A DNA stretch of 64,000 nucleotides from Methanomicrobia archaeon. Lineage in GTDB: Archaea > Halobacteriota > Bog-38 > Methanoflorentales > Methanoflorentaceae. Positions 5,724-59,488 of this stretch are shown here, piece by piece; the stretch's first letter is position 1, and each line of letters opens with the position of its first letter. Position numbers and translations under genes: made by a program. The stretch spans positions 4,479 to 68,478 of the forward strand of contig JACTTZ010000003.1 in the NCBI GenBank assembly GCA_015660915.1, in the 5' to 3' direction. The notes below the pieces were generated by a model. The model was not told the origin of the DNA. It searched no databases and saw only the letters and a list, made by a program, of their open reading frames with translations.

Positions 5724-5873
5724 TACTCTAGTGACGCGATGCAATAAGATGACGATCATTGGCTGGAATCTCGATGATCGCGTTCCATTTGAGGAGCAAA
5801 AGGAGTTTTTATCCTGTTTTTCATAAACACTTTGGAACAAGCGATTGAACTTGATCCGAGACTTAAGTAGAGC

Positions 5874-6785
5874 CTACTCTTCGGTGAAGAAATCAGAATC
5901 GACTTGTTTTATTTCGTATTCGACGACCTTTGACACCCCGATGCCGTGATCGATCATAAGCTGTGCCAACATATCTCCATTGATAAGAACAACCTTATCC
6001 TCTATTTGCGAGGCATAGTCCGTTGCTTCACGTGAAAAATCAGCCGTAGTAATGAATACGCCTCTGCGTGCGCGCTGACCGTGGAGCGCCCCAACGAACT
6101 TCTGAATCTCCGGTCTGCCGACCGTCGCTTCCCACCTCTTAGCTTGCACGTAGACCACGCCTAACCCCAATGGGTCTTCCTTGATAATGCCATCTATCCC
6201 TTCGTCGCCGCTCTTGCCTAGCGCCTGTCCGGCATCTTTGATTGAGCCGCCATACCCCATCTCAACAAGTAGTTTAACCACTAGTCTCTCAAAAAAGCTA
6301 GGAGAACAGACTTTCAGTTTATCGAGCAGCTCTCTAGCCAAGTTCAGCCTCAGCTCCTGATAGGCATTTTCCATCACCTCAACGGGCGTCTGATCAGGGA
6401 CTTTTGCAGATTCGGCTTCGCCTTCTGTTCTATCTTCTTTTTTCCGCTGCAAGAACCCCACGAATCGCGGATATTGCTTTAAAAACTTGACGTCTATTGT
6501 CTTGGGACTCGCCTTAAGCGCATTTACGCCGTCTTCCGTTATTTTAAAAAAAGAGCGCCTCGTAGAGTCGACCAGCCCTGCTTTTTTTAAGTAAAACAAC
6601 CCCCATCGGACTCTGTTATCAAAAACTTGCTCGTAGCCGCTTGGCAATAGTTCTCTCCTTTCCTGAGTTGATACTTCAAAAACCGAAGCGACGTAGTCGT
6701 ATGCGTCGCTTATCGCGTGCTCTTCCTCATCAGAAGCGTATTGTAAGAGTGGGAGCATTGCTTGTTGGTATTTGGGAATAGCCAT
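5874..6785 (-). CDS. mrr: Mrr-like type IV (modification-dependent) restriction endonuclease
   Basis: N-terminal Mrr_N winged helix (AIPKYQQAMLPLLQ...) plus C-terminal Mrr_cat-like region (GIDGII...VYVQAKRW). Likely true start at the internal Met MAIPKY preceded by GAGGTG. The ORF-track start at 6917 adds a 44-aa Arg-rich extension. Confidence 0.65.
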   Translation of the reverse strand: MAIPKYQQAMLPLLQYASDEEEHAISDAYDYVASVFEVSTQERRELLPSGYEQVFDNRVRWGLFYLKKAGLVDSTRRSFFKITEDGVNALKASPKTIDVKFLKQYPRFVGFLQRKKEDRTEGEAESAKVPDQTPVEVMENAYQELRLNLARELLDKLKVCSPSFFERLVVKLLVEMGYGGSIKDAGQALGKSGDEGIDGIIKEDPLGLGVVYVQAKRWEATVGRPEIQKFVGALHGQRARRGVFITTADFSREATDYASQIEDKVVLINGDMLAQLMIDHGIGVSKVVEYEIKQVDSDFFTEE

Positions 6786-6959
6786 AGCACCTCTTCTCAA
6801 ACATCGTCTCGAAGTATTCTCTGTTCGATATCTCCTAGCTAGATGCAGTAAAACCGTGCGACTGTTAAGACCCCTCAAACTCACAGATTTATTGTGGCGG
6901 TTCTTAAATCGCCGCAAACCAGTTGCTTAGCTGACTTGCTCAGTCTTCTTTGCTTACGT

Positions 6960-7430
6960 TTATTTTTTTTGGCTTGTTTTTTTAGCTTGTGAGATTATCC
7001 GATCGTAATCGCTTTGCGGAATCTGAACCACAGCTTTACCTCTAATAGGGCCAGTCCAGTATGTCTTGTTCGGTAAGAAAGAAAGTCTCAGTATTAAAGG
7101 CTTAAAATCGATGGGTGGTTCAAATACCCTTACAGCTTCCAACCGTAATCTCAACGGAAAAGTTTCATTTGGCGTATTCGGAGGTGTAACGAACAGCTTC
7201 TTGCTGTCTTCGAAGACTGTTGAAGCGATCTCATATTGTGCAACTATCTTCGGTCTTAACGTTTCGCCTGCGCTAATTTCACCTTTCACATAAACTAAGC
7301 ATTGGTCGCCTTTCTTTACTCTGGAGAGCGCATTCTTGTATCGTGCAGAAGCCCCGAGAATATTTGTCTTCTTTGTGATTGTCCAGTTGTCAGAGTTTGT
7401 TACATAGATCCAGTAAGCCATAGCCATCAA
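6960..7430 (-). CDS. EVE (PUA-like) domain protein, putative modified-base reader
   Basis: Starts AYWIYVTNSDNW...; size about 150 aa; PUA-like beta-barrel signature typical of EVE/ASCH proteins. Sits directly beside Mrr. Confidence 0.5.
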   Translation of the reverse strand: MMAMAYWIYVTNSDNWTITKKTNILGASARYKNALSRVKKGDQCLVYVKGEISAGETLRPKIVAQYEIASTVFEDSKKLFVTPPNTPNETFPLRLRLEAVRVFEPPIDFKPLILRLSFLPNKTYWTGPIRGKAVVQIPQSDYDRIISQAKKTSQKK

Positions 7431-7569
7431 ACCGAACCTATGCCCCCGCCGCTATAAAAAAGGCGCGTTGTGCACTTACTTGGGATGCTTGCACTGTTCA
7501 ACGACGAGAGTACCCAGCCAAGTAAAACTCGGCGCACTTGAACACGTAAAAAAAAGAATCGCTTGAATA

Positions 7570-7605
7570 CCCGAGTTTTTCCCGAGTTTTTCCCGAGTTC
7601 TTAGC
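7570..7605. repeat. tandem repeat (cccgagtttttc) x about 3
   Basis: Direct tandem copies are visible in the sequence. Confidence 0.7.
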
Positions 7606-7840
7606 TCCAAAAGTTCCTGTCGTAACCCGTCGGATACCCCCCTCATCCGCTGCTTTCGGGTCGATCGAACGTCTCGTGGCAAGGTCAAATAGATATTAAA
7701 AGCTCGAAATGTTTGCTCGGTTTCGCCATCCAACGCTTCCAAGGCTCGGGATTGTGAGGCTTAGGATTGACACCTACGCGAAGGGCTTTTACATCCATTA
7801 TGTTCTCGAAAATCTCTACAAAGAATTGCCCAAATCCCCG

Positions 7841-7920
7841 TGTTTTTACCGTGTTTTTTCCCTACTTTTACCGACCGTTTGCCGCTGCTTGACCGACACT
7901 TTTTTACCACCTGTTTACCC
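7841..7920. repeat. iteron-like cluster of TTTTACC motifs (at least 4 copies); candidate replication origin of the integrated element
   Basis: Repeated gtgtttttacc / cttttacc / ttttttacc / tgtttaccc within 80 bp in a non-coding stretch near the primase-helicase gene. Confidence 0.35.
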
Positions 7921-8185
7921 TTCCTAAAGACGTTCTGTATGATTCCAAGATACACTTTTCACGTTCGTTCAGCTCAAGGGCAAAGATTCGATCAGAAAAA
8001 GCTTGTGCCCGCTTGACCCTATCGTATCTCGCACTATACCGTTCAAGTTGGCGCAAGGAAAGAGAGAGGCTGTAGGTTTGCCGCAGCTTCTGAAGTGATC
8101 GGGAAGGGCCCATGTCTCGATAAAGGCAAAAAAGCTCATACGCCTTGCTGCGTTCATTGGGTAAACGATCCCATGCTTCGGTCAT
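7904..8185 (-). CDS. hypothetical small protein
   Basis: 93-aa ORF in the island, no motif. Confidence 0.25.
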   Translation of the reverse strand: MTEAWDRLPNERSKAYELFCLYRDMGPSRSLQKLRQTYSLSLSLRQLERYSARYDRVKRAQAFSDRIFALELNEREKCILESYRTSLGRVNRW

Positions 8186-8203
8186 TCAAACGATTCCTTT
8201 ATC

Positions 8204-8449
8204 TCAAGGAGGGCAGCACATAATCGATCTTCTGACGCGGCGAATCTTAATATACCCTGACCGAGCCAATCTGTGAACCCTGTAGTAGAGTTCCTGATAG
8301 GCGGTGTCATAGAACTCTTTGTTGAGATCGGCAAGCGGTACGCACTCTAGATTGTGACCAATAGAAAGCCCCAGAGTGAAACGGGATCTCCTGCAAATCC
8401 GAGCTATGATTTGCTCATCGAGTTCATTGATTTTGTTTTTGTTATTCAC
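8204..8449 (-). CDS. hypothetical small protein (overlaps the primase-helicase start)
   Basis: 81-aa ORF with an 8-nt overlap with the upstream gene, suggesting an operon. Confidence 0.3.
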   Translation of the reverse strand: MNNKNKINELDEQIIARICRRSRFTLGLSIGHNLECVPLADLNKEFYDTAYQELYYRVHRLARSGYIKIRRVRRSIMCCPP

Positions 8450-10580
8450 TTTCGTCCCCTTCTAACAAGAGCGGTTTTCCGCCGGTTAGTTTCAAAAAGA
8501 TCGATGCTGCCGGGCCATTTCCGTTCACGAGCTCGCTGAAGCGGCGCTCGAGGATAATGCGCGACTGTCTATCATCGGCCGAGATGTTATTTTCTTCACA
8601 ATACATCGCGACTGTGAAATTGCAGAGATATTCCGGATCGCGGGGTTCCTTGTAATCGCCATCGGCCAACCATCCGAGCCTTTCGCTTACGTAGCCGTCG
8701 AAGTGTGCCTCCCGGTCGTGGTCGTCTGGTACATGCTTACCACGCGAGCAGTCGGCTATGAGCGTCTGCACTTCCGGATCAGTCTCGGCTAACTTTTTAT
8801 AGAACTGCTCGACGGGGTAGTCGCGCAACCAAGGCTTATCTGCCTTAATGGTCTTGCTCAATTCGGCAGCAAACTCGTTAGTTGTCATGTCGATGGGCCC
8901 AGACCGCGCCTTCTTGAACCCGTTTAGTATCTGCTTGACGTCTTCGACGAGTTCTTTTTCATGTTTTTCACGCTCGCCATTCACCTGAGGGCCTGAAGGC
9001 AATGAACCCATTTTGACTAACTTTTCATGATACCCCTCAGCCGTCATGTAACGAATGTCAAAACCACCTTCATAGCCTTCAGCATTCAGCTCAGCCTTCA
9101 GCGGTGCGGCAACCTCATCGTCATACTCGCCAATATCCCGTAACCGAATCCCTGCCCGCAGATTGCCGCTTTCTTTATGTATGCTCTTAAATCCGAGTTT
9201 CGTAAGATATGAGTAAAAACTCGTCGGCGTCGAGACGTTATGACGCTCCTCGGCGGTCGCGACGTTTCGAAATCGCTCATACAAGGCTTTAGACGTCGAT
9301 TCGGCGCCCGCTTCGACTATGCACTCACTCTCGATAAACGCGGCGAGCGGATTCATAGATTTTTGGTAGTCTTTCCGCGCAGCGTTGACCGAATCCGGCG
9401 GCATAAGGCCGTAGTCTTGCCAATCATAGCACCCCTGCACTAACCACGCAAAAATAGCCTTCTGCGCGTTCTCATCCTCTAAGAGAAATTCTTTGATTTT
9501 CGGGTCGCACTCCTCGAGAGCGATCGGGTTTAAGAACTGCACGATAAAGAACCGATTAAACGACGCATCATCGTCGAAGTCTAATTTCGGCAAGAAATTC
9601 GTCTCGATATAGAATTTTGTGCGCGGATCTATCTTGCGCTGCCTTTTTTCAAACAGGCCTCGGGCACTCTGCGGGTTCCCGCTCGTAACAGCCTTGAGAA
9701 ACGAATCATTGAAGACCATACCCCGAGGCACTTCGCTACACTGCGCGGCACGCACGCCCTCGAGACTAACAAGGTCTGCCCGCGCTCCTCCGGGTTTTTG
9801 TATCGCCTTTGCGAATGTCGATATGTTGACCGGGGCAGCATAATCGCCTAGGGTTTTAAAGATCGCATCTAAAAGCGTTGACTTACGTGCGTTCGCTTCA
9901 CCGTAGAGAACGAACAGGGCCTTGTCTCGATTGATCGCTGTCAATCCTGACCCACAAGCCCGCTGTAAAAACGCGCCTTGCTCGAGTGACAACACTTCGA
10001 TAAGCCGTTCGTACCATTCCGAGCTTACCGTCTCGGGTTCATAGGGCACGGCTGCTATTTTGGTTACCAAGTCGTTGCGATCCGGGTCGCGCAATTCCCG
10101 CGCATTTAAGTCAAGGGTTCCGTTTTGACAGTTGATGAGCCAAGGGTTGGCGTCAAAGTCTTTCGCCATGACTGCGATGCGCGGGTCTGACTGTGCAAGT
10201 TGAATCATCGCGTTTATGCGAAAATTGGAATCACTCTGATACGCCCAGTTCGTCAACCGCTTTTGTGCCGCTTTCCGTTCTTTCGGATCATCCTCATCGA
10301 TGAAACTCGCCTCTGCGTGTATGAGTTTGACCGTTTTTTTGGCCAGTTCTCGAATTTTGAGTGTGACGTCTCGAGGCCATCGCGAGTCATCCCATATGAA
10401 CCACTCACCAATTTCAGCGCAATAACGGATATCATCACCGTACAGAGCAATAAGTCGAAGCGCATTGCCGCCGTCTGTCAAAGGATAACCACACACTACC
10501 CGCACGTCGTTATGTGTGCTGGTTTTGAGGTCAAGCTCAGACAATGTATGCTCACGTATCCCGGGTTGTGATCCGCTCAC
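8442..10580 (-). CDS. plasmid/virus-type replication protein: primase-like N-terminal domain plus D5/SF3-helicase-like NTPase (P4/COG3378 family)
   Basis: N-terminal LTDGGNALRL motif (P4-type primase family). Central Walker-A-like YGEANARKSTLLD with downstream D5_N-like region. 712 aa, typical of MGE primase-helicases. Confidence 0.6.
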   Translation of the reverse strand: MSGSQPGIREHTLSELDLKTSTHNDVRVVCGYPLTDGGNALRLIALYGDDIRYCAEIGEWFIWDDSRWPRDVTLKIRELAKKTVKLIHAEASFIDEDDPKERKAAQKRLTNWAYQSDSNFRINAMIQLAQSDPRIAVMAKDFDANPWLINCQNGTLDLNARELRDPDRNDLVTKIAAVPYEPETVSSEWYERLIEVLSLEQGAFLQRACGSGLTAINRDKALFVLYGEANARKSTLLDAIFKTLGDYAAPVNISTFAKAIQKPGGARADLVSLEGVRAAQCSEVPRGMVFNDSFLKAVTSGNPQSARGLFEKRQRKIDPRTKFYIETNFLPKLDFDDDASFNRFFIVQFLNPIALEECDPKIKEFLLEDENAQKAIFAWLVQGCYDWQDYGLMPPDSVNAARKDYQKSMNPLAAFIESECIVEAGAESTSKALYERFRNVATAEERHNVSTPTSFYSYLTKLGFKSIHKESGNLRAGIRLRDIGEYDDEVAAPLKAELNAEGYEGGFDIRYMTAEGYHEKLVKMGSLPSGPQVNGEREKHEKELVEDVKQILNGFKKARSGPIDMTTNEFAAELSKTIKADKPWLRDYPVEQFYKKLAETDPEVQTLIADCSRGKHVPDDHDREAHFDGYVSERLGWLADGDYKEPRDPEYLCNFTVAMYCEENNISADDRQSRIILERRFSELVNGNGPAASIFLKLTGGKPLLLEGDESE

Positions 10581-11119
10581 GAACGACCTCCGTCGTCGCC
10601 GTCGCCCGAGAGCGAACTCGACTGAGGGTCGTTGCCAAAGCCCAGCAGCTTTCGGAGTTCTTGCATCTCCTTTGCTTTCGTATACTCCACATCAATCGCG
10701 CGCACTTGCGCTATGGTCTCATCAGCGTCTTGGTCACCGAGCGGCTTACGTCGTTGGATCCTGCGGAACAGCGCTAAAAGCAGCCATAACGGTACTTCGT
10801 CAGCGTAGCAATCGTTACGCCACTCAGCCCCAGCGCCGTCTTGATAGTTGATTAGGGCCCGTTCATCGCCGCGTTCAGTCAAATACCAGCTCACATTCTT
10901 ATGCTGCGTGCCAAAGCTCTCGCGCACTCCCTGACGCACGAATATCTGATATTCGTAGAGCAAGTGCTCTGCCGCGTCGTATAGGTCGTTGGACAGCGTG
11001 GCCGTCTCGCCACGTCTCAGCTCTGTCGTGACTTCCTTTAAGCTTCTGTGTGTCTCGCTCTCGTAGTCATCGGCGGGCGTGACATAGCCGCGATTCGGGT
11101 CAAAATATGAACTCGTCAT
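10577..11119 (-). CDS. hypothetical protein
   Basis: ORF translationally coupled (ATGA overlap) to a duplicated 3'-end remnant. Likely ATG start at MTSSYFDP. Confidence 0.35.
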   Translation of the reverse strand: MTSSYFDPNRGYVTPADDYESETHRSLKEVTTELRRGETATLSNDLYDAAEHLLYEYQIFVRQGVRESFGTQHKNVSWYLTERGDERALINYQDGAGAEWRNDCYADEVPLWLLLALFRRIQRRKPLGDQDADETIAQVRAIDVEYTKAKEMQELRKLLGFGNDPQSSSLSGDGDDGGRS

Positions 11120-11169
11120 GCCCTCGCCTCCCACAACCGCTCCATTCTGAATATGAAGCTGTCTAGGTC
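11117..11169. repeat. about 53-bp direct repeat copy 1 (gene-junction cassette: 3' end ...F(I/F)(F/G)RMERLWEAR(A/S)* + ATGA start overlap)
   Basis: About 90% identical to 12004-12055. Confidence 0.8.
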
Positions 11170-11183
11170 GTCGTGAATGTCGG

Positions 11184-12005
11184 TCATGCTCGATGCTCCC
11201 CGTTCGCTATTGCCCATAATTTTTCTCTGTCAACACGTTCAGCCCGAAGTACGCCATAAAAAACAGACGTGTCGTAAAACTCGAAAAGAGCAGCTTCGTA
11301 AAGCTCCCGGAGTGTATAAGGAGGAAGGGCGTCGAGTTCCACCTGCATGAGCTGACCGTAGTCTCGAATGAAGCCGGCTGCACGTGAATCGCCTTTTTTA
11401 CCCGGGTTTACCGGTAAATTATATTCACTTACCTGATCCTCATTGAGCGCAATGCGTTGCACATGGTCAAAGCAGCTGCACCGCTTTTTGAAGTCTCTCA
11501 ATATGTCGACGCCGCTCGGATCGAAATCACCAGCATAAATGAGCACGGCTTGACGGTCATTGTTCGTAACATCCTCGATGATCACATCGACATACGTTTG
11601 CGACGAGTACCCACGAAGCGGGGCGATCGCAACACCGTATGTTTCAAACCACTGCTTCAACTGCGGCACCATGCCGTACTTTTCAACGCCGAGATAGACC
11701 GAGTACTCCTGCCTTTCATCGCGGTTACGGCAGTAGCTCCTAGTGAGCGATTTCAAAGCATCTTGCGGGCTACTGAATCCGCCAAAGCGGTGAATATCGC
11801 GTGTCTGGTCAACTAGCTGCGGAAACTGTCCGTTTCGACGAAGAGCCGCGGTGACCCTACTGAGTCTTTTATACGCGTACTCACTGTTCGGTATCGCGCC
11901 TTCAACGACCAAGCGATAGAACAGTTGTCGGAGAGAGACGCCGGTGTCATAAGAACGCACTATTTCAGCAGCTCGGGTGATGACGCGAGGCCATGAAATG
12001 CTCAT
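11184..12005 (-). CDS. Spo11/Topo VI-A-like 'Mini-A'-type protein (winged helix with Tyr + Toprim)
   Basis: wH motif SLRQLFYRLV (5Y-CAP-like R..Y). Toprim glutamate LGVEKYGMV and DxD motif IYAGDFDPSGVDI. 273 aa, shorter than Topo VI-A. Confidence 0.45.
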   Translation of the reverse strand: MSISWPRVITRAAEIVRSYDTGVSLRQLFYRLVVEGAIPNSEYAYKRLSRVTAALRRNGQFPQLVDQTRDIHRFGGFSSPQDALKSLTRSYCRNRDERQEYSVYLGVEKYGMVPQLKQWFETYGVAIAPLRGYSSQTYVDVIIEDVTNNDRQAVLIYAGDFDPSGVDILRDFKKRCSCFDHVQRIALNEDQVSEYNLPVNPGKKGDSRAAGFIRDYGQLMQVELDALPPYTLRELYEAALFEFYDTSVFYGVLRAERVDREKLWAIANGEHRA

Positions 12006-12226
12006 GACCTCGCCTCCCACAACCGCTCCATTCTGCCTATGAAGCTTTCTAGGTCATAAACGAAGGGTGCTAGTACGAGGTGGTATTCGTCGTCTTCGGT
12101 TTCGACGCGTTCAAGCTCGTAACACAGGTCGCCGTAGAGCTCCTGTGCCCCTATCAAAATCAAAAGAGGGCGCTCTGCATCAAAGCGCTTATCAAAGCGC
12201 AGCCCGTCACTGCTCACCGCGTGCAC
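12002..12226 (-). CDS. hypothetical small protein
   Basis: 74-aa ORF; its stop overlaps the downstream start (ATGA). Its last 16 codons are duplicated at 11120-11170. Confidence 0.35.
   Translation of the reverse strand: MHAVSSDGLRFDKRFDAERPLLILIGAQELYGDLCYELERVETEDDEYHLVLAPFVYDLESFIGRMERLWEARS
12004..12055. repeat. direct repeat copy 2 (see 11117-11169)
   Basis: Covers the 3' end of gene 12002-12226 and the start of 11184-12005. Confidence 0.8.
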
Positions 12227-12714
12227 GAGAAACCTCCGTGTGTCTCTTTTGGAGTCTTAGTCGCCAATGGCACATCGGCTTCCATGTTCTTGCGCTCAGA
12301 ACCACGGCACGTTATTGCGCCTCTACTTCGCCCAGCGAATGGTATACAGCTTCTGTCAAGGTCACGCGGCAATGAGCAAAGGCAGTTAGGTACGCCTTTG
12401 ACCTTCTTTTGGGGATCGGTCAACTTCATGCGTTTGCATGAACGATCCGGATTAAAACTGCGTTCAAAGTCTAAGGGACTCTTTTCAGACTCATCCGGCT
12501 GAAGCCTCATTAGAGGAGCCGGCAAGTTTTTCGAAATTTTGTTTCTTCTAAACATGTTTCTCACTCCAAAAAGCCCAATAAATGGAGAGAGAAACGACCT
12601 TATTTCAAGCGGATATTCTTTATAAAAAGAAACCGCAATTACGTACTACCTAATCTAATCAATTAGGTATGGAGAAACAAGGAATGAGAGGATAGATCGG
12701 GATCTACTCTTACC

Positions 12715-12737
12715 GGCGGAGATCATAACTCTCCGCC
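12715..12737. terminator. perfect 8-bp stem / 7-nt loop hairpin GGCGGAGA-TCATAAC-TCTCCGCC followed by a T-rich tract
   Basis: Inverted repeat seen directly in an intergenic region. Confidence 0.3.
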
Positions 12738-12785
12738 ATCTCTCCATTTTACAGTGCTCTGATTGTTTTTGTTTTGTCTTTCCTC

Positions 12786-13418
12786 CTACGGGTTCGCATT
12801 CTCTGTCGGTCGACGTGTCTTATGCAATGAGAACTCCACAGCCACCGAATCTTCTGCACCTTTCCGAGGCTTTTCCCCACGCTCCACCCGATCAAAAAGT
12901 GCCATAATGTCGCCGTCTTGATCCTTGTAAAGCACCCACACATATGTTAGTGACAAGGGTTCATCGATCGGAAGGCCATCCTCCACCTTCTGAACCGTCG
13001 CAATCCATTTTGAAACGACAGAATTGCAGACATAGCACCAGCTTGATCCAGATTTTAATTGGCTGTACGAAAAACCGATAAGGGGGTCGCTGCTGTGAAT
13101 ACCGTCAGCTTGTACACTAAGACCGAGGCTCTTAGCCACGTCGTCAGCGTGGAGAGAATCCCATACGATTCTGATGAACCTGATGGTAGATTTCCGCACA
13201 GGCCAACGCATAGGATCATGTGTAAGCACCCAAAAAGCAACGATTTCGCCGACCGAATACTCAGGCCAATTGCTTGGCCCGCCTCGACCTTTTCCTTCGC
13301 TCTTGTGGTAACGACGAGGCGCGGTAATGACCCCTTCGTGGGCAAGCTTTCTGATTGTGCTGGAAGCTAAACCAACTCCGTATTTGTGTAAATGAGCCTG
13401 AAGTTCGTCGACTTGCAC
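12786..13418 (-). CDS. hypothetical protein with N-terminal HTH-like segment
   Basis: LASSTIRKLAHEGVI helix-turn-helix-like stretch; the rest is unknown. Confidence 0.3.
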   Translation of the reverse strand: MQVDELQAHLHKYGVGLASSTIRKLAHEGVITAPRRYHKSEGKGRGGPSNWPEYSVGEIVAFWVLTHDPMRWPVRKSTIRFIRIVWDSLHADDVAKSLGLSVQADGIHSSDPLIGFSYSQLKSGSSWCYVCNSVVSKWIATVQKVEDGLPIDEPLSLTYVWVLYKDQDGDIMALFDRVERGEKPRKGAEDSVAVEFSLHKTRRPTENANP

Positions 13419-13546
13419 GCTTCATACTGGGTTTGCTTTTTACTTAAACTTGTTCTCCTATAGAACATGTTCCATACAGAACAAGTTAGTGCTTTCACGG
13501 AAGCCACAGTTTGTTATAAACCCTTGAGTGCTACTTCTTCGACACT

Positions 13547-13836
13547 ATGCAAAAGATCCAAGAATTGTTACCAGATCACAGCACCAGCATCCTAGAGATA
13601 ATCAATGATGCCGCCAATGCTTACAAAGGCGCCATCCCTGATGACCGATGGAAAGAGCCGTACATGTCAGCGAACGAACTGGCCGATGAAATAAGAGCCG
13701 GCGTTCGATTCCACGGGTGGTTTGAAGACGGCTTTTTAGTGGGCATCGCGGGATTCAAAATGTCGGCGGCTTCAGGATCAATAAGCGGGGGTAGCGTGAG
13801 GTTCCCAATGCTTTTTAATCTAGACATCCTCTGTTT
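13547..13836 (+). pseudogene. possible truncated/frame-disrupted acetyltransferase-like ORF
   Basis: The N-terminal 95 aa look protein-like. The tail overlaps the convergent pentapeptide gene and is low-complexity. Confidence 0.2.
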
Positions 13837-15393
13837 TCATCCTTGTCGCTGCTGTTTTTCTCTAAATGCCTGCACAAGTTTGGCTGAGCGTTCCCTGTCG
13901 CCTTTAATTGCTTCTTGCGACACCGCCTTAGCAGGCTCTATTACGTTTTTGTTTATCGATTTGACCAGATCGGCCGTATCTTCATACCAATAGGTATCGA
14001 GAATCATCGTTTCAAGTTTCTTTCGCAAGCCAATCAGCACCATATGCTCTCCCTTCGCTTTTTCTGAGGCGACTCGGATGGGCAGTATAGGCACAGCAGC
14101 GCCCGTATCAGCGATGTGTTGCACCTCGATAGGCACCATCTCAGGGTCAGTAAAGTCAGCGATAACGAACTGCGCCATACGTGCAAGAGTAGATACTGTT
14201 TCGATAAACGTTTGGCTCTCCGGTTTTTCAAAGTCGAATACTACAGGCACATAGTCATGATGACGAAGTTCGTCTCGGACTGCGTCGAGCGTCGGCTTTT
14301 GCTCATCAGTGAAGCGGCCGAGGAGAAGCACGACTTTTGAGGTCATAATATCAATAACATTTCGCAGCTTTTCGTATTTCGTTAGCAAATAGATGAACTG
14401 CGCGACCTCAAGGTCGTCAACGGTGATCACGGGCTCTCGTTCGTATATATTGCTGATGTTCAAGTTTGACTGATCTTTTGGCTTACCTTGAAGGTTCCAC
14501 ACCGAGCTACCGTACACGGCACATCCAGCAAAAATGGCATCCGCGATGGTCGTTTCTACAAAAATTGCCCTCGTGAGATTGGCGTCTGAAAGGTCGGTAC
14601 CTGTCAGATCCGCATTTGAAAGATCGGCAGAATAGAGGGTAGCGTGAGAGAGGTTAGCGTGGGAGAGGACGGCTTTGTAGAGGTGGGCTTCTCGCAAGGT
14701 GGCGCCAGAGAGGTTGGCGTCGGTGAGCTTGGCCTTATAGAGGTGGGCGCGGGTGAGGTCGGCTAACGAGAGGTCGGCGCCCCTCAGATCCGCATTTGAA
14801 AGATATGCGTCGACAAGAATAGCGCCAGAGAGGTTAGCGCCGGAGAGGTGGGCAAAGGAGAGGTGGGCCTCGCTGAGATTAGGCCTCACCTCAGAGTACT
14901 TATCACGCCAACTGTTCCACTCGTCAACGCCTTGTTTCAGAATTTCAAGGTGCGATTCATTTGCCGTAGAAGATCTCACTGCGAGCGTCAGGCCGGCGTC
15001 GGTGAGGTCTGCACCCGTCAGATCCGCATTTGTAATGTTAGCGTTAGAGAGGTCGGCGCCGCTGAGGTCGGCGTTAGAGAGGTCGGCGCCAGAGAGCTCG
15101 GCGTTAGAGAGGTCGGCGCCAGAGAGGTCGGCGCCAGAGAGGTTAGCGTCGGTGAGCTCGGCGTGGGAGAGGTTAGCGCCAGAGAGGTTAGCGCCAGAGA
15201 GGTCGGCGTCGGTGAGGTCGGCGTAGAAGAGGTCGGCTCCGATGAGGTTGGCTTCGTAGAGGTCGGCTTCTGGGAGGTGGGCGCCGCTAAGATCGGGCCT
15301 CACGTCATGGTACTCTTCACGCCAACTGTTCCAGACTTTAAAGCCTTGCTTTAGGATTTCGAGATGTGATTCATTGACCATCGAAGATCTCAC
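13837..15393 (-). CDS. pentapeptide-repeat protein with duplicated N-terminal module and a C-terminal non-repeat alpha/beta domain
   Basis: Long runs of A(D/N)LSGA(N/D)L pentapeptides. Two copies of the module ESHLEILKQG..WNSWR..Y.(D/E)VRP(D/N)LS.AHL. The C-terminal 190 aa are non-repetitive (KVVLLLGRFTDEQ...VPVVFDFEKPE...FVIADFTDPE). Confidence 0.7.
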   Translation of the reverse strand: MRSSMVNESHLEILKQGFKVWNSWREEYHDVRPDLSGAHLPEADLYEANLIGADLFYADLTDADLSGANLSGANLSHAELTDANLSGADLSGADLSNAELSGADLSNADLSGADLSNANITNADLTGADLTDAGLTLAVRSSTANESHLEILKQGVDEWNSWRDKYSEVRPNLSEAHLSFAHLSGANLSGAILVDAYLSNADLRGADLSLADLTRAHLYKAKLTDANLSGATLREAHLYKAVLSHANLSHATLYSADLSNADLTGTDLSDANLTRAIFVETTIADAIFAGCAVYGSSVWNLQGKPKDQSNLNISNIYEREPVITVDDLEVAQFIYLLTKYEKLRNVIDIMTSKVVLLLGRFTDEQKPTLDAVRDELRHHDYVPVVFDFEKPESQTFIETVSTLARMAQFVIADFTDPEMVPIEVQHIADTGAAVPILPIRVASEKAKGEHMVLIGLRKKLETMILDTYWYEDTADLVKSINKNVIEPAKAVSQEAIKGDRERSAKLVQAFREKQQRQG

Positions 15394-15581
15394 TCGTCAA
15401 ATTGGCATAACAGAGTCAGCCATAAGCGCATCCGTCTAACGGTTCACTCCACGTTGCACGCTGCTGCACTTTTTGCTTTGTCAATTCTAGTGGAATTATC
15501 TTAGCTGCTGAAAACTTTATCGGCTTGTGTTCTGCGGCAGTAGCGTGGTTTGAGATGGAGTGGCGTTTGATTTTCGCCGGT

Positions 15582-15720
15582 TTATCTGGAAATTATGAGC
15601 TTAACGTTATTCCAATATTGCATATACACATCATATGCGTGCTCAGGCAGCGGATGCTTATAGTGCTTCCAATCGATACCGCTGACGCCGTGCGTCGTAC
15701 ACGCTCTGACCGACAGAATC
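15582..15720 (-). pseudogene. tyrosine integrase C-terminal remnant (...THGVSGIDWKHYKHPLPEHAYDVYMQYWNNVKL*), no start codon
   Basis: Strong protein/DNA similarity to the C-terminus of the intact integrase 20218-21045. Confidence 0.5.
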
Positions 15721-16030: not shown

Positions 16031-16264
16031 TTAGTTGTCTAGGCGGGTATTGTGCCAATATTTTATAAACCCGTAATAAACGTGCTCAGGCAAAGGATGC
16101 TTGTCATGCTTCCAATCTATACCGCTCACGCCATGCGTCATTATGTAAGCACGATTTGACTGATCCCAGCCTATTGCGTCACCGCCCTGCTCGCAAAACT
16201 TGCGCAGATCGCCAAGCACGAAATGCCCCTTAAACTGTGACATCGGAATCTTCTGCCGTTTCAT
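16031..16264 (-). pseudogene. tyrosine integrase C-terminal remnant (box II + catalytic Tyr region)
   Basis: GDLRKFCEQ...WDQSN..Y.(L/M)THGVSGIDWKH.KHPLPEHVY matches the intact integrase C-terminus. Confidence 0.6.
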
Positions 16265-17134: not shown

Positions 17135-18406
17135 ATGACGATTATCATAGGGATCAATTTCGGTGCGTATGTGTTATTAGCTGCCGATACACGAGCTACT
17201 CTCCTCAACTTGAGCAACCGCCCATACCGCCGTCGCGATGATCACAAAAAGATTAACAAGACTAGCTCTGGCATAGTCGCAGGTCGAGGTATTGATGAAC
17301 TCCTTGAACTTGTCAATTCCAAGTTTGATGAAATTCATGAGATCATTAGTACTGATGAAGTTCGAAGAATCATAAACAATGAAAGACAACATTTCCGCGA
17401 ACTTTACCCAGAGAACAAACAAGGCATTGAAAACACTGCTTGGATTTTTAGCTATTTAACGTTTAGCGAAGGAACTTTCGACAAAGGCACACCGACTCTT
17501 CGACTAGGCGTCAATGGTCGTGGCATAGACATCATTGGACGTCGCCACATAGTCGACAACTGCCCTTGCGTAATTCCGCCACCCGAGGCAACTAAACAAG
17601 ATGCTAGTTTTATCTTTGACTTTCTGAATGAATCAATAAAGGGCTTCGATCAGTTTAAGACGATAGGCGACAGCATCGAATATCATTGGTCATTAATTGC
17701 CCGTTTAATTCGAACAATTCAGCCTAAGTTTGATAGCATAAGTCGTCATTGTCAGATAGGTGTGCATACACTAGACGGTCATACCGGTATATCTTCAATT
17801 CTAAAAGACACCGATACTAGCGCTTCAATAACTCTGAAGCCACCACCTTCACCGTCGAGCGTCATATCTACCGTGGGACGATTAACTACTCTGACGAACG
17901 AAGCATATGGGTTTAGAATAACATATCCTGTAACTTGGAAAATTGAAGAGGCGCTTTCCGCGTTTGATCCCGTCAGAGTCCGCATCTTCTTACCTACAGA
18001 TGATTACGAGGATAACGTTAGCGTTGCTATGTTCAGTCTCGAGCCAAATACATCGCTTGATGGCGTTATCAAATACAACTTAAATGATATTCGAAACCTT
18101 AACGACATCCGCCTTGTATCAGAAAGAAACTCCACTATCGCTAATCATCCTTCCTACACAGCGGTGTTTGAAGGGATTGTTCCTGTTCAGCTAAGCGAAA
18201 CGTCTCCCGTCGCCCAAGATATAATACATAAAGCGAAACAAATATGCGCGGTGAATAATGACGCGCTTTACGTCGTCACCTACAAAACGGCGCGAGACAA
18301 GTACGACCAGTATTTAGCGCCAGCGCAACGAATCATGGATTCTTTTGTTTTCGTCAGACCACACGATATATTCAAACCGAACAAAAAATGGTTAATTCGA
18401 TACTGA
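17135..18406 (+). CDS. Ntn-hydrolase (proteasome beta / HslV-like) domain protein fused to a C-terminal domain of unknown function
   Basis: N-terminus MTIIIGINFGAYVLLAADTRAT mirrors the proteasome-beta TTIVGIK..GVVLAADTRAT, with Thr2 positioned as a potential N-terminal nucleophile. The C-terminal 200 aa are a beta-rich domain, possibly PsbP/Mog1-like. Confidence 0.4.
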   Translation: MTIIIGINFGAYVLLAADTRATLLNLSNRPYRRRDDHKKINKTSSGIVAGRGIDELLELVNSKFDEIHEIISTDEVRRIINNERQHFRELYPENKQGIENTAWIFSYLTFSEGTFDKGTPTLRLGVNGRGIDIIGRRHIVDNCPCVIPPPEATKQDASFIFDFLNESIKGFDQFKTIGDSIEYHWSLIARLIRTIQPKFDSISRHCQIGVHTLDGHTGISSILKDTDTSASITLKPPPSPSSVISTVGRLTTLTNEAYGFRITYPVTWKIEEALSAFDPVRVRIFLPTDDYEDNVSVAMFSLEPNTSLDGVIKYNLNDIRNLNDIRLVSERNSTIANHPSYTAVFEGIVPVQLSETSPVAQDIIHKAKQICAVNNDALYVVTYKTARDKYDQYLAPAQRIMDSFVFVRPHDIFKPNKKWLIRY

Positions 18407-18609
18407 GAAATGTTCTTCTTAGATCGTATATAGATGCCGAACCTGTGCTCAGGCAGACAGATGTTTACAGCGCGGTAAGGGTTCCAATATGGAGCGTTTC
18501 GCGCTTCTTTTTTCTTGGTTGCACGCCTACGCTATATCCGCACGTGCTTTCATCTAAGTTATCGGTCAGGGCACGGATCGTCTCACGCTAACCGCACATC
18601 CGCCCAATA

Positions 18610-18861
18610 CTAGATATACGTATCATAGACGTTCTCCGGCAATGGGTGTTTGTAGTGCTTCCAATCGATGCCGCTCACCCCGTGCGTCAGGATGTCAGCG
18701 CGATTTGGTTGGATCCACTCGATAATACCAATACTGTTCACGAAACTACACAGATCGTTGGGTAGCGCTTCTGTCAGCGGTAGGATCTGGCAGGGCAGTG
18801 CCGCAGTTTGCGTGCGTACGAGGCACATCGAATGCCACCATCCCCACATTTTTTTCATCAA
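18610..18861 (-). pseudogene. tyrosine integrase C-terminal remnant
   Basis: ...ILTHGVSGIDWKHYKHPLPENVYDTYI* matches the intact integrase. The upstream part is unrelated. Confidence 0.55.
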
Positions 18862-20217: not shown

Positions 20218-21045
20218 CTAAGCGTCGAATCTCACATCTTTCCAGTACTTCATGTATACGTCATACACGTTCTCAGGCAGCGGGTGCTTGTAAAATCGCC
20301 AATCGACACCTGAAACGCCGTGAGTGAGTACATAGTTCTTATTCGATTGATCCCACAGCAGAATATCGGATTGTTGCTCACAGAATTTTCTTAGATCTCC
20401 GTTTACTATACGGGCCCCGCTGTTCAACAATCGAACGCCAGTGTGCTTGAGCCACTCCTGAAAGGATAGTTGCTGAAAAACAAATTCATCATCAGGCCGA
20501 TCTTCCAACGCGGGAATCATCGCCTCTACAACTTGCGGATGCAGGGGGCAATAATGCTGCATTCGGATTTTGTCTTGCCACGGAAGCACGTCGACAGCAG
20601 GCTTCTTCGTTTTCACAGCTTCCCTGAACTGGCCGACGGTTAACCGTGCTATTGTTGCCAAAGGCCGCTGCCCAGTGAACGCACCAAACAACGTCAGTGC
20701 TTTGTAATTAAGGCGGTGATAGTCATCTATCCGCCCGACACTATAGGAGAGTTCAATCGCCTTCAGCACATTCTCAACGTCTTCTTTCGTAATGATTCTC
20801 GAAGTGACATGCTTACGCGTTTTGAGCGTTTTAGGCATTTCCAAAAAGAGTTCAAATGCCTGAAAGCGCATGTCGAACGTCGTCTTCGCGAGATACTTCA
20901 AAAGACCTTTGGTGAAATAGAGCACTTTGCGTTTTGAATAGACGCAAGTGTATTTTGTCAGAGTGAAATTGCGCACTGCGTCTATCGTTTCCTTGCTAAC
21001 AGTGCCGTGCGTATGCTTCCAGACGATTTCAGCCGCCTTATTCAT
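20218..21045 (-). CDS. int: tyrosine recombinase / phage-type integrase (intact copy)
   Basis: Catalytic signature in order: R (TGQRPLAT), H..LRKF (box II), HGVSGVDWRFY (His/Trp + Tyr nucleophile). Three co-oriented C-terminal remnants lie nearby. Confidence 0.7.
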   Translation of the reverse strand: MNKAAEIVWKHTHGTVSKETIDAVRNFTLTKYTCVYSKRKVLYFTKGLLKYLAKTTFDMRFQAFELFLEMPKTLKTRKHVTSRIITKEDVENVLKAIELSYSVGRIDDYHRLNYKALTLFGAFTGQRPLATIARLTVGQFREAVKTKKPAVDVLPWQDKIRMQHYCPLHPQVVEAMIPALEDRPDDEFVFQQLSFQEWLKHTGVRLLNSGARIVNGDLRKFCEQQSDILLWDQSNKNYVLTHGVSGVDWRFYKHPLPENVYDVYMKYWKDVRFDA

Positions 21046-52387: not shown

Positions 52388-52471
52388 TGCACCGACCGGG
52401 ATTCGAACCCGGGTTGTGGGCTTTCTTCACGCGTTGGAAGGCCCAAGTCATAACCGCTAGACCATCGGTGC
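52388..52471 (-). tRNA. tRNA-Gly(UCC) with a 12-nt intron 3' of the anticodon
   Basis: Manual fold: acceptor GCACCGA/TCGGTGC, anticodon arm TGGGC-CUUCCAA-GCCCA, T-arm CCGGG-TTCGAAT-CCCGG. TATA-like ATTAATATA about 30 nt upstream. Confidence 0.7.
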
Positions 52472-59066: not shown

Positions 59067-59372
59067 CAAAATGTGTGGAGATGCGAACATCAGAGAAGTT
59101 GAAGCAATTCGGTTTTTCGCTTTTCATAGGCCTCGCTAGTGATAAAACCTTTCTCACGTAACACATCGAGCTTTTCTATTTGCTCGATTATGTCCTCTTT
59201 CATGCTTTGATGCTTCTCTTCGTTAGCCATCGTGTTTCGGATAGCCTTTATGAACGATAAACTTTATGTATTTTCACACGTAATAATATATTCTTTTTTG
59301 CTTGCACCCTTCACGTAGACGTTAACCCAAGAAGTGGTACACGCGTAGCGTGTAAAAGCAGTACTTTGAACA

Positions 59373-59468
59373 AGCCGCCGGAGGGATTTGAACCCTCGAT
59401 CTGCTGATACTTCTTTGAGCGGTGCTCAAATACGAATCAGCCGCTATGCCGAGCTTAGCCACGGCGGC
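59373..59468 (-). tRNA. tRNA-Thr(CGU) with a 22-nt intron (hairpin UUUGAGC...GCUCAAA) after position 37
   Basis: Manual fold: acceptor GCCGCCG/CGGCGGC, D-stem GCTA/TAGC, anticodon stem GCTGA/TCAGC with loop UUCGUAA, T-arm GAGGG-TTCAAAT-CCCTC. Confidence 0.6.
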
Positions 59469-59488
59469 CACGCATAGTATGTTTAGAC

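Follow-up and report, generated by a model that had tools for sequence, protein, structure and literature searches.

The window, which is the whole stretch of 64,000 nucleotides that was analyzed, carries on its minus strand an open reading frame at 13837..15393 that encodes 518 aa from a GTG at 15393 or 514 aa from an ATG at 15381. The ATG at 15381 was chosen by the gene callers in 97 metagenome blocks, with the exact 514-aa product in each; residue numbers throughout follow the 518-aa numbering. The protein consists of two modules, each made of a cap motif and a run of pentapeptide repeats, and behind them a non-repetitive C-terminal domain of approximately 210-230 aa. The gene and the features of its repeat part are as follows.

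13837..15381, minus strand: whole gene, 514 aa, ATG at 15381
14981..15394, minus strand: tandem-duplication unit, copy 1, with a 13-nt leader, the ATG, cap 1, and run 1 of the pentapeptides, as delimited by the local DNA alignment
14567..14980, minus strand: tandem-duplication unit, copy 2, with the old start codon now ACG (Thr), cap 2, and the beginning of run 2
15274..15372, minus strand: cap motif 1 (aa 8-40), ESHLEILKQGFKVWNSWREEYHDVRPDLSGAHL
14980..15273, minus strand: pentapeptide run 1 (aa 41-138), from PF00805 and the register
14860..14958, minus strand: cap motif 2 (aa 146-178), ESHLEILKQGVDEWNSWRDKYSEVRPNLSEAHL
14518..14859, minus strand: pentapeptide run 2 (aa 179-292), from PF00805 and the register
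14753..15354, plus strand: antisense ORFs 14753-15226 and 14848-15354, which overlap each other, mechanical ORFs and not genes

Pentapeptide repeats were recognized via Pfam PF00805 (E=2e-76) in eight stretches over about aa 30-295, and a printout of the register gives approximately 21 repeats in run 1 and 24 in run 2. At least eight contiguous A(D/N)LXX repeats define a pentapeptide repeat protein (PF00805), and the window protein is one; its repeat part is, judging from the sequence, expected to form a beta-helix that is quadrilateral and right-handed (Rfr fold).

The cap motif ESHLEILKQG..WNSWR..VRP.LS.AHL occurs at both aa 8-40 and aa 146-178, and the internal duplication of the N-terminal module that was noted in the original prediction is confirmed. 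Aligned with each other over 132 aa (score 339), the two modules show 57% identity without gaps. In the DNA, a 414-nt unit has been duplicated in tandem, exactly head to tail, and the local alignment is offset by exactly 414 nt. Copy 1 runs from 15394 to 14981 and copy 2 starts at 14980; over their first 140 nt, they share 77% identity. The duplicated unit includes the 13-nt leader and the start codon, where copy 1 has ATG and copy 2 has ACG. A doubled module was found in the window protein only, and the duplication is lineage-specific. The two antisense ORFs, rich in Arg, Ser, and Ala, lie wholly opposite the repeat region and are by-products of the repeat DNA, as had been proposed; similar ORFs at homologous loci cluster only as artefacts.

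The gene comes first in the cargo of an integrated element, next to the element's attachment-site remnant. The element is located at an integrase hot-spot and also carries RM, Mrr, and EVE genes. This agrees with the earlier placement of the gene in a mobile-element island. The integrase features are the following.

15607..15696, minus strand: integrase 3'-end remnant (phrog_216 integrase) nearest to the gene, marking the edge of the integrated element
16050-16139, 18599-18688, and 20237-20326: further copies of the integrase 3' end, the last one within an intact integrase gene

Fold and conserved residues of the C-terminal domain

The C-terminal domain and its candidate catalytic residue map to the following positions.

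14341..14517, minus strand: N-terminal subdomain (aa 293-351), with the hairpin VYGSSVWNL and two predicted helices, ITVDDLEVAQFIYLL and KYEKLRNVIDIMTS
13921..14340, minus strand: alpha/beta core (aa 352-491) of five predicted strands, flavodoxin-like and resembling nucleoside 2-deoxyribosyltransferases (NDT), from models and alignments
13840..13920, minus strand: C-terminal helical tail (aa 492-518), part of a long predicted terminal helix and present in close relatives only
14125..14127, minus strand: codon of the invariant Glu423, candidate catalytic residue in the opening turns of the helix that follows strand 3

Two independent AlphaFold models of the domain (pLDDT 87 and pTM 0.80; pLDDT 86 and pTM 0.83) predict a well-folded flavodoxin-like alpha/beta domain and not a disordered region. 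In Foldseek searches of the PDB with a model of the core only, the matches were MilB (TMq 0.71 and TMt 0.69, rmsd 3.5 A), BcmB (TMt 0.74-0.76), and DNPH1 (TM 0.60-0.72, rmsd 3.4-4 A), together with TIR domains (TM 0.5-0.6, rmsd 6-7 A) and flavodoxins (about 0.5). N-glycosidases of the MilB/BcmB/DNPH1 type were also the top low-rmsd matches with the full-domain model, and viral NDT and CMP-hydrolase models were among the structural matches as well. The Foldseek E-values are only 1e-3 to 1e-4, at 10-16% identity. As modeled, the fold is that of the NDT/DNPH1/MilB/TIR group of N-glycosidases, nearest to the NDT-like enzymes and then to TIR, and the original prediction of a flavodoxin-like, possibly TIR- or SLOG-like, module had come close.

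Sequence searches gave no meaningful match to the domain in Pfam, NCBIfam, PADLOC, PHROG, or the PDB sequences, either with the single sequence or with a profile. The full protein has no match in PADLOC-DB v2, where the domain retrieves only Cas7f at chance level (E=0.01), and none of 28 members matched the Pfam NDT families at E<=10. With hhalign, the family profile gave a non-significant probability of 0.4% against DNPH1 and nothing significant against the TIR of RPS4, both sequences having been verified with PDB entries, or against the genuine TIR domains of the family members P0240 and P0157; the diversity of this profile is low (Neff 2.5), which limits the power of these comparisons. The only Pfam family matched repeatedly was TIR_2 (PF13676), in four of the 28 members and in register with the core. 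All four matches lie below threshold (the best reaches 18.9 bits against a gathering threshold of 28, E=0.0017-0.0022), and the window protein itself matches neither TIR model (PF13676, PF01582). A CheY-like receiver was considered and rejected. Receivers have an acidic pair after strand 1, the phospho-acceptor Asp after strand 3, Thr or Ser after strand 4, and Lys after strand 5; the domain gave only a partial CheY match (E=0.075), and its strand-1 loop reads G-R-F without an acidic pair.

Some 20 invariant residues of the domain are kept across bacteria and archaea at 45-67% identity. In the N-terminal subdomain these are Q308, D326, Q332, F333, and Y335. Invariant or nearly so in the core are K353, G359, R360, F361, R377, P383, D387, F388, K390, P391, F409, D413, T415, E423, P438, and Y470. 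Strand 1 leads into G359-R360-F361, strand 2 into D387, K390, and P391, and strand 3 into D413 and T415, with E423 starting the next helix. The invariant polar residues lie, in the models, at the C-terminal ends of the strands, the edge where this fold class binds ligands. Glu423 is invariant in A1, A2, and A3 and, in the predicted model, occupies the same secondary-structure position as Glu104 of DNPH1. A collinear hhalign alignment of the family profile with the N-terminal TIR of P0240 (96 columns) places Glu423 on the catalytic TIR glutamate (GMFELVE), at a non-significant E=0.33.

Family architecture and genomic neighborhoods

The C-terminal domain family comprises 1,939 clusters at 90% identity and 4,620 representatives at 50% identity, and it occurs in at least 511 species genomes of bacteria and archaea. 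The domain is apparently always fused behind a pentapeptide helix of variable length, the region N-terminal to it ranging from 36 to 605 aa, and the cap HL..L..GV..WN.WR...PDL opens most members. The fusion, regarded as unusual in the original prediction, is the standard architecture of this family. Paralogues are frequent and include tandem arrays. Proteins of about 220 aa were considered as stand-alone versions of the domain and rejected: P0001 has a mis-called start with a full cap and repeats upstream in frame, and among the other short members, L063 carries a frameshift, L025 is truncated where its contig ends, and remnants of the repeats persist in L052 and L066. The family is very large, cross-domain, and undescribed, with a pentapeptide helix apparently always joined to one conserved domain.

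No conserved partner gene was found in 68 loci. A gene of about 185 aa accompanying the paralogues in L084 was considered as a partner and rejected, since it occurs only in L084, L001, and L007 and not in the window, and neither Pfam nor PHROG gives a match to it. Several members are found among defense or mobile-element genes. P0240 lies within a type I RM operon and adjoins a TIR-SH3 gene, P0083 occurs with Abi_alpha, an integrase, and IS21, and P0039 is located between an integrase/excisionase and a capsid gene in a prophage-like region. A copy on a Vibrio plasmid belongs to ICE cargo in which TIR and macro genes adjoin it. Bacterial homologues include one on pLMG19642-1 of Vibrio pectenicida (WP_125322322.1) and others in Spirosoma and Paludibaculum.

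Most copies of the family are chromosomal. The domain was found in none of 50,697 phage records and in four of 72,556 plasmids, and it has no PHROG. Together with the conserved synteny around the family gene in Methanotrichaceae and the housekeeping neighbors of P0007 and P0066, this distribution would suit a housekeeping or developmental protein, e.g., a DNPH1-like hydrolase for nucleotide salvage or for sanitizing modified nucleotides, tethered by a scaffold helix, or a HetL-like regulator, whose site in a mobile island is incidental. DNPH1 is itself a housekeeping sanitizing enzyme according to its PDB names, and the repeat part scores against the NCBIfam models of HetL and Alr5209. However, the HetL score of 157 bits is under the cut-off of 260, and that of Alr5209 (164.8 bits against a cut-off of 125) passes only by summing four partial repeat stretches against a 113-position model, so that it does not indicate a full-length equivalog. 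The patchy distribution, the paralogue arrays, and the highly variable repeat length also speak against such a role, as does the recurrence of the gene beside integrases and RM, Abi, TIR, and macro genes. We consider a housekeeping role quite unlikely.

Charge of the repeat helix and its possible role

The original prediction regarded the pentapeptide helix as a DNA mimic. The repeats of module 1 have a net charge of -18 over 104 residues without any Lys or Arg, which makes them the most acidic repeat region measured; those of module 2 are mildly acidic, at -6 over 120 residues. Across the family, the median net charge of the repeat regions is -0.03 per residue. This acidity is only mild, so DNA mimicry is not general; strong acidity like that of a DNA mimic is confined to module 1 of the window protein.

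The acidity of module 1 bears on two alternative explanations. In one, function would reside in the helix, which would bind a DNA-processing enzyme and either inhibit or protect it, in the way that Qnr, MfpA, and AlbG act on gyrase. The C-terminal domain would be non-catalytic, serve in dimerization or nucleotide sensing, and stand in for the helix at the C terminus through which Qnr and MfpA dimerize. A dimerizing role would agree with the NDT and DNPH1 folds, which form obligate dimers, and SLOG-type relatives of the fold act as nucleotide sensors (ThsA). Pentapeptide proteins of known function act via their surface (PMC8145042). In addition, a topoisomerase-like protein is encoded on the same element at 11184-12020, 1.8 kb from the gene (phrog_6247, E 4e-45), and a few members of the family add an N-terminal TIR or HTH domain and thus have an output of their own, which means that the C-terminal domain need not be an effector and could be a regulatory or assembly module. 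On the other hand, the topoisomerase-like neighbor is not kept in other loci, and the protein scores far under the NCBIfam cut-offs for Qnr (73.2 bits against 240) and MfpA (62.3 bits against 360). Approximately 20 invariant polar residues at strand ends, a glutamate among them, exceed what a dimer interface usually needs, and it is the repeat region whose length and charge vary, as would sooner be expected of a recognition module than of a conserved effector. This explanation seems doubtful.

The other alternative is an anti-defense factor of the mobile element, in which the acidic, DNA-mimicking helix would act as a decoy for restriction or DNA-sensing defenses and the C-terminal domain would degrade an immune signaling nucleotide. 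The gene is the first cargo beside the attachment-site remnant, NDT-like and TIR-like folds could conceivably hydrolyze signaling nucleotides, and there is a report of a phage pentapeptide protein that counters the Sucellos defense system (bioRxiv 10.1101/2024.07.02.601686). Such a role, as proposed in the original prediction, is nevertheless disfavored by the phage and plasmid counts given above and by the chromosomal location of most copies, some of them with housekeeping neighbors. The same element carries the RM, Mrr, and EVE defense genes, which suggests defense cargo rather than counter-defense. We regard anti-defense as highly unlikely.

Proposed function and known systems

The best explanation, which we put forward tentatively, is a self-contained protein that combines a recognition helix with an N-glycosidase and is most likely related to conflict. 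The window protein is real and probably enzymatic; a sensor-effector role of the defense type is plausible but unproven. In the proposed mechanism, the protein would act alone. Its variable beta-helix would be a recognition surface for a protein target, which could be a DNA-binding enzyme of either the invader or the host; in the archaeal copy of the window, this helix is doubled, with a very acidic, DNA-like extra module. The constant C-terminal domain would bind a nucleotide, NAD+ or a (d)NMP, and probably cleave its N-glycosidic bond via Glu423, probably working as a dimer like DNPH1 and the NDT enzymes. As cargo of a mobile element, the likeliest role of the protein would be defense, exclusion, or abortive infection.

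A further reading, which we consider unlikely, is that the family is a widespread, so far unrecognized single-protein immune system in bacteria and archaea. The rapidly varying helix would then be a DNA-like bait that senses DNA-binding proteins of an invader and switches on a TIR/NDT-like N-glycosidase of a new clade, whose activity destroys NAD+ or nucleotides or else generates a signal. The rare TIR or HTH domains would be a second output, and the doubled bait of the window protein would broaden or change its sensing.

Pentapeptide-repeat proteins number tens of thousands, of which only a handful have a known function (PMC8145042). The C-terminal domain is probably nucleotide-processing and has no model in any database, and the large new subfamily is defined here. 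If the domain is an active N-glycosidase, the family would be a new clade in the TIR/NDT enzyme group, which plays a central part in immunity across all domains of life, and many orphan pentapeptide proteins would gain a first general functional logic, in which the helix senses and the tail is the enzyme. For experiments, the invariant Glu423 is a simple and direct handle. Even if the role turns out to be housekeeping, the family merits a database model and a name.

Among known systems, Retron-Eco1 (Ec86) uses an NDT-like fold as a toxic anti-phage effector and was retrieved by Foldseek (8qbk_E, 7xjg_J). However, this match is weak (TMt 0.26-0.32), and the gene described here comes without a retron RT, an msDNA partner, or a PADLOC match.

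Qnr, MfpA, and AlbG have tandem A(D/N)LXX repeats like the window protein, whose module 1 is strongly acidic. Qnr and MfpA are single-domain proteins of about 180-220 aa which dimerize via a C-terminal helix, whereas the window protein has two modules of cap and repeats followed by a globular tail of 230 aa. A precedent for the fusion is the Salmonella effector SopA, in which a pentapeptide beta-helix is a targeting module for a C-terminal HECT-like E3 ligase (PMC8145042). SopA differs in that its catalytic domain is unrelated and in that it is a secreted virulence effector with another distribution.

TIR domains (TIR_2, PF13676; the NADases of SARM1 and plant NLR TIRs) belong to the same predicted fold class as the C-terminal domain, and they likewise occur in defense islands and in single-protein architectures with repeat sensors. 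The structural fit to TIR is poorer than that to the NDT-like enzymes, and the TIR_2 scores stay below the gathering threshold. Some members of the family have a genuine TIR besides the C-terminal domain, which indicates that the two are not interchangeable.

The closest likeness is to DNPH1/Rcl, MilB, and BcmB, which are the best structural matches (TM 0.60-0.76, rmsd 3.4-4 A) and share the predicted five-stranded flavodoxin-like core. As in these enzymes, a Gly-containing loop follows strand 1, and the invariant glutamate is predicted to stand near the start of the helix following strand 3, the place of their catalytic glutamate, marked in DNPH1 by the E-to-Q mutant of PDB entry 8qhq. A relationship at the sequence level, by contrast, is undetected (no Pfam match, hhalign probability <1%). 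Compared with these enzymes, the C-terminal domain adds a conserved N-terminal subdomain made of a hairpin and two helices, as well as a long C-terminal helix, and it is apparently always joined to a pentapeptide helix.

The pentapeptide-repeat gene and its doubled module

The minus-strand ORF at 13837-15393, originally predicted to encode a pentapeptide-repeat protein with a duplicated N-terminal module and a distinct C-terminal part, was recovered and encodes 518 aa when read from a GTG (the residue numbering used here). Starting at the ATG at 15381 gives a 514-aa product, and public metagenome assemblies contain an identical gene call in 97 blocks. Pfam places PF00805 pentapeptide repeats at aa ~30-295 (E = 2e-76, 8 stretches), and the last 214 aa have no match in Pfam, NCBIfam or PADLOC. 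Copies of the cap motif ESHLEILKQG..WNSWR..VRP.LS.AHL lie at aa 8-40 and aa 146-178, and the two cap-plus-repeat modules can be aligned across 132 aa. In the DNA the modules form an exact head-to-tail tandem duplication, and the Arg/Ser/Ala-rich ORFs predicted antisense to the repeats were also found.

Duplication copies and antisense ORFs
15394 to 14981, minus strand: duplication copy 1, 414-nt unit
from 14980, minus strand: duplication copy 2, 414-nt unit
14753-15226, plus strand: mechanical ORF opposite the repeats
14848-15354, plus strand: mechanical ORF opposite the repeats

The unit takes in the start codon together with 13 nt of leader; the codon reads ATG in copy 1 and ACG (Thr) in copy 2. 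The copies are 77% identical in nucleotides across the cap and 66% across the whole module, and the duplication is therefore not recent. In the genome loci, 68 focal genes were parsed; 52 of them contain one cap and not one contains two. Among 264 retrieved proteins, two caps occur only in P0121, the window's own representative. The doubled module is thus specific to the lineage of the window.

Strong acidity of the kind expected of a DNA mimic is confined to module 1 of the protein. No other repeat region that was measured is as acidic as this module (net -18 over 104 aa, without Lys or Arg), and module 2 is mildly acidic (-6 over 120 aa). In the family, 75% of the members are net negative and the median charge is only -0.03 per residue; strong DNA mimicry is not a family trait.

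A 148-aa convergent ORF (13547-13993, plus strand) overlaps the 3' end of the gene and is present among some metagenome gene calls. Its first ~70 aa resemble the start of a small enzyme (..ILEIINDAANAYKGAIPDDRW..) and the remainder is low-complexity antisense sequence; it has no Pfam match and may be a truncated gene remnant.

Fold and candidate active site of the C-terminal domain

AlphaFold models of the whole C-terminal domain (C-domain; pLDDT 87, pTM 0.80) and of its alpha/beta core alone (pLDDT 86, pTM 0.83) both contain a five-stranded flavodoxin-like core, with a hairpin and two helices on its N-terminal side and a long helix on its C-terminal side. In a Foldseek search of the PDB, nucleotide N-glycosidases were the best matches by geometry, followed by TIR domains, with modest E-values (1e-3 to 1e-4) and identities of 10-16%. 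Viral nucleoside deoxyribosyltransferases and CMP hydrolases were also among the structural matches.

Foldseek matches of the C-domain in the PDB
MilB: TMq 0.71, TMt 0.69, rmsd ~3.5 Å
BcmB: TMt 0.74-0.76
DNPH1/Rcl: TM 0.60-0.72, rmsd 3.4-4 Å
TIR domains: TM 0.5-0.6, rmsd 6-7 Å
flavodoxins and MdaB: about 0.5

The family alignment contains about 20 invariant columns, including the following.

Invariant residues of the C-domain
G359-R360-F361: after strand 1
D387, K390, P391: after strand 2
D413, T415: after strand 3
E423: first turns of the helix after strand 3
Y470: in strand 5

Proteins of the flavodoxin-like fold class have their ligand site at the C-terminal ends of the strands, and this is where the models place the invariant polar residues. 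These conserved residues and the pLDDT values argue against a disordered tail or a bland dimerisation module.

Among Pfam families, only TIR_2 drew matches from several members (4 of 28); these are below threshold (best E 0.0017) and lie in register with the core. Alignment of the family profile by hhalign was non-significant for DNPH1 and the RPS4 TIR (both sequences confirmed against PDB entries) and for two genuine bacterial TIRs. In the non-significant alignment to the TIR of the family member P0240, 96 columns run collinearly and Glu423 coincides exactly with the catalytic Glu of the TIR. The sequence-level link to known enzymes is weak; by predicted fold, the C-domain is placed in a TIR/NDT-like group (NDT, nucleoside 2-deoxyribosyltransferase) with a candidate catalytic Glu, and we file it in neither family.

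Family breadth and genomic context

The fusion, whose distribution had been raised as a check, is widespread. A search with aa 286-518 alone gave 1,939 clusters at 90% identity, nearly all with pentapeptide Pfam matches ahead of an unannotated tail, and an exhaustive HMMER profile search gave 4,620 representatives at 50% identity (E<=1e-3; 2,364 with E<=1e-30). In these representatives the C-domain is always C-terminal, with 55-605 aa of other sequence in front. When one genome per species was scanned, at least 511 species proved to encode it, with carriers including Acidobacteriota, Planctomycetota, Chloroflexota, Proteobacteria, Bacteroidota, Firmicutes and Cyanobacteria among bacteria, and Methanotrichaceae and other Euryarchaeota among archaea. 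Identity to the window's C-domain is 45-67%, even across bacteria and archaea. Repeat-region length is highly variable and the tail is constant. The architecture shown is that of a self-contained protein, in which a variable repeat helix is joined to a constant, conserved tail that resembles nucleotide enzymes. Apparent stand-alone tails were rejected as artefacts, P0001 for a mis-called start and the others as frameshifted, cut by contig ends or carrying repeat remnants, which suggests that helix and tail are obligately coupled.

A few members have an additional N-terminal region: a genuine TIR_2 in P0240 (E=5e-18), a TIR-like region in P0157, an XRE-type HTH in P0142, and 250 aa with no assigned domain in P0213. 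Such TIR- and HTH-bearing variants favor a Qnr-like helix as the effector, with the tail as a regulatory or dimerisation module, a reading that we consider rather doubtful.

Genomes commonly carry paralogues of the gene, and tandem arrays are also common. One Halobacteriota MAG (L084, JBTDLV010000053.1) has four tandem paralogues at 4096-10700, one with a truncated C-domain, interleaved with two copies (5735-6295 and 9227-9778) of an unannotated ~185-aa gene. This gene, which has no Pfam or PHROG match, is also near the focal gene in loci L001 and L007 and nowhere else.

No neighboring gene is conserved across 68 homologous loci. The contexts sampled below carry Pfam or RefSeq annotation.

Selected genomic contexts
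P0240 (TIR, pentapeptide and C-domain; JGI 3300071358, genes 3110-15005): type I RM operon hsdM-hsdS-x-[gene]-hsdR
P0039: integrase/excisionase on one side, phage capsid gene on the other
P0083: Abi_alpha, integrase fragment and IS21 around
WP_125322322.1 (L091, Vibrio pectenicida plasmid pLMG19642-1, 3428-6579): just downstream of TIR and macro-domain genes, same orientation, ICE cargo
Chlorohelix plasmid copy: AAA ATPases and SUMF1-domain proteins around
P0007 and P0066: plain housekeeping neighborhoods

A YgjP/SprT-like gene and a TIR_2-SH3 gene follow just downstream of the P0240 insertion, and the locus is a typical defence-island arrangement. The source of WP_125322322.1 has been cultured, and the protein is a candidate for experiments. 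A housekeeping role for the family, as the neighborhoods of P0007 and P0066 might suggest, is unlikely. The C-domain was found in 4 of 72,556 plasmids and 0 of 50,697 phage records, with no match in PHROGs. An anti-defence role is very unlikely, and the domain's absence from phages speaks against it, although a phage pentapeptide protein has reportedly been found to act against Sucellos defence (bioRxiv 10.1101/2024.07.02.601686).

The integrated element and a proposed role

The host is an archaeon, as judged by eRF1 and hypC/A/E next door, and the window gene sits within an integrated element.

Leftward of the gene, same element
hypothetical genes
11184-12020, minus strand: topoisomerase-like gene, 278 aa (phrog_6247 'DNA topoisomerase', E=4e-45; no Pfam match)
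D5-type primase-helicase
within 2913-7430: EVE-domain gene
within 2913-7430: Mrr endonuclease with Mrr_N
within 2913-7430: Eco57I/MmeI-like fused RM methyltransferase, 936 aa

The region 2913-7430 is a defence-gene cluster (RM, Mrr, EVE) at the element's far end. Pentapeptide proteins of known action target type II topoisomerases, and the topoisomerase-like gene, 1.8 kb away, adds to the case for the helix as effector; this neighbor is not conserved in the other homologous loci. A 63-nt direct repeat (11107-11169 and 11993-12055, 89% identity) spans the 5' ends and upstream regions of this gene and the adjacent minus-strand gene 10577-11134, whose products begin MGGEVMS.. and MGGEGMT.., respectively; the two genes have a start region in common.

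Copies of an integrase 3' end (~90 nt, minus strand)
15607-15696
16050-16139
18599-18688
20237-20326

Three of the four copies are 71-80% identical to the reference copy, and the segment is the 3' end of an intact 275-aa integrase-like gene (20218-21045, phrog_216). Three remnants, one inside a 77-aa ORF (16031-16264), and the intact copy lie immediately right of the pentapeptide gene. This looks like the trace of successive integrations at a single site by an integrase whose attachment site would lie inside its own gene (SSV-type). Between the remnants, 17135-18406 (plus strand) encodes a 423-aa protein with a weak, sub-threshold PsbP-like C-terminal region (PF18933, E=4e-5). Elsewhere in the window, two ARAGORN 'tRNA-???' genes with four-base anticodon loops (52388-52471 and 59372-59469, minus strand) could be archaeal tRNAs that carry introns or are otherwise unusual.

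We tentatively favor a protein in which the pentapeptide helix would be the recognition module and the tail would bind a nucleotide, probably hydrolysing it via Glu423; the protein would work as a dimer, as DNPH1 and NDT do, and would have a conflict-related role. The protein is real and its family large, and the proposed function can be tested through a single residue. A pentapeptide helix that targets a fused catalytic domain has a precedent in SopA (PMC8145042). Full-text literature searches found no description of the C-domain or of its pentapeptide fusion; the papers found mention pentapeptide repeats only as modules of a generic kind, variable or scaffolding, in conflict systems (PMC7159879, PMC8195603). 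Both components, the pentapeptide helix and the NDT/TIR-like fold, belong to known kinds. Their combination into a large family with a conserved domain of its own is undescribed, and none of the databases searched has a model for it.
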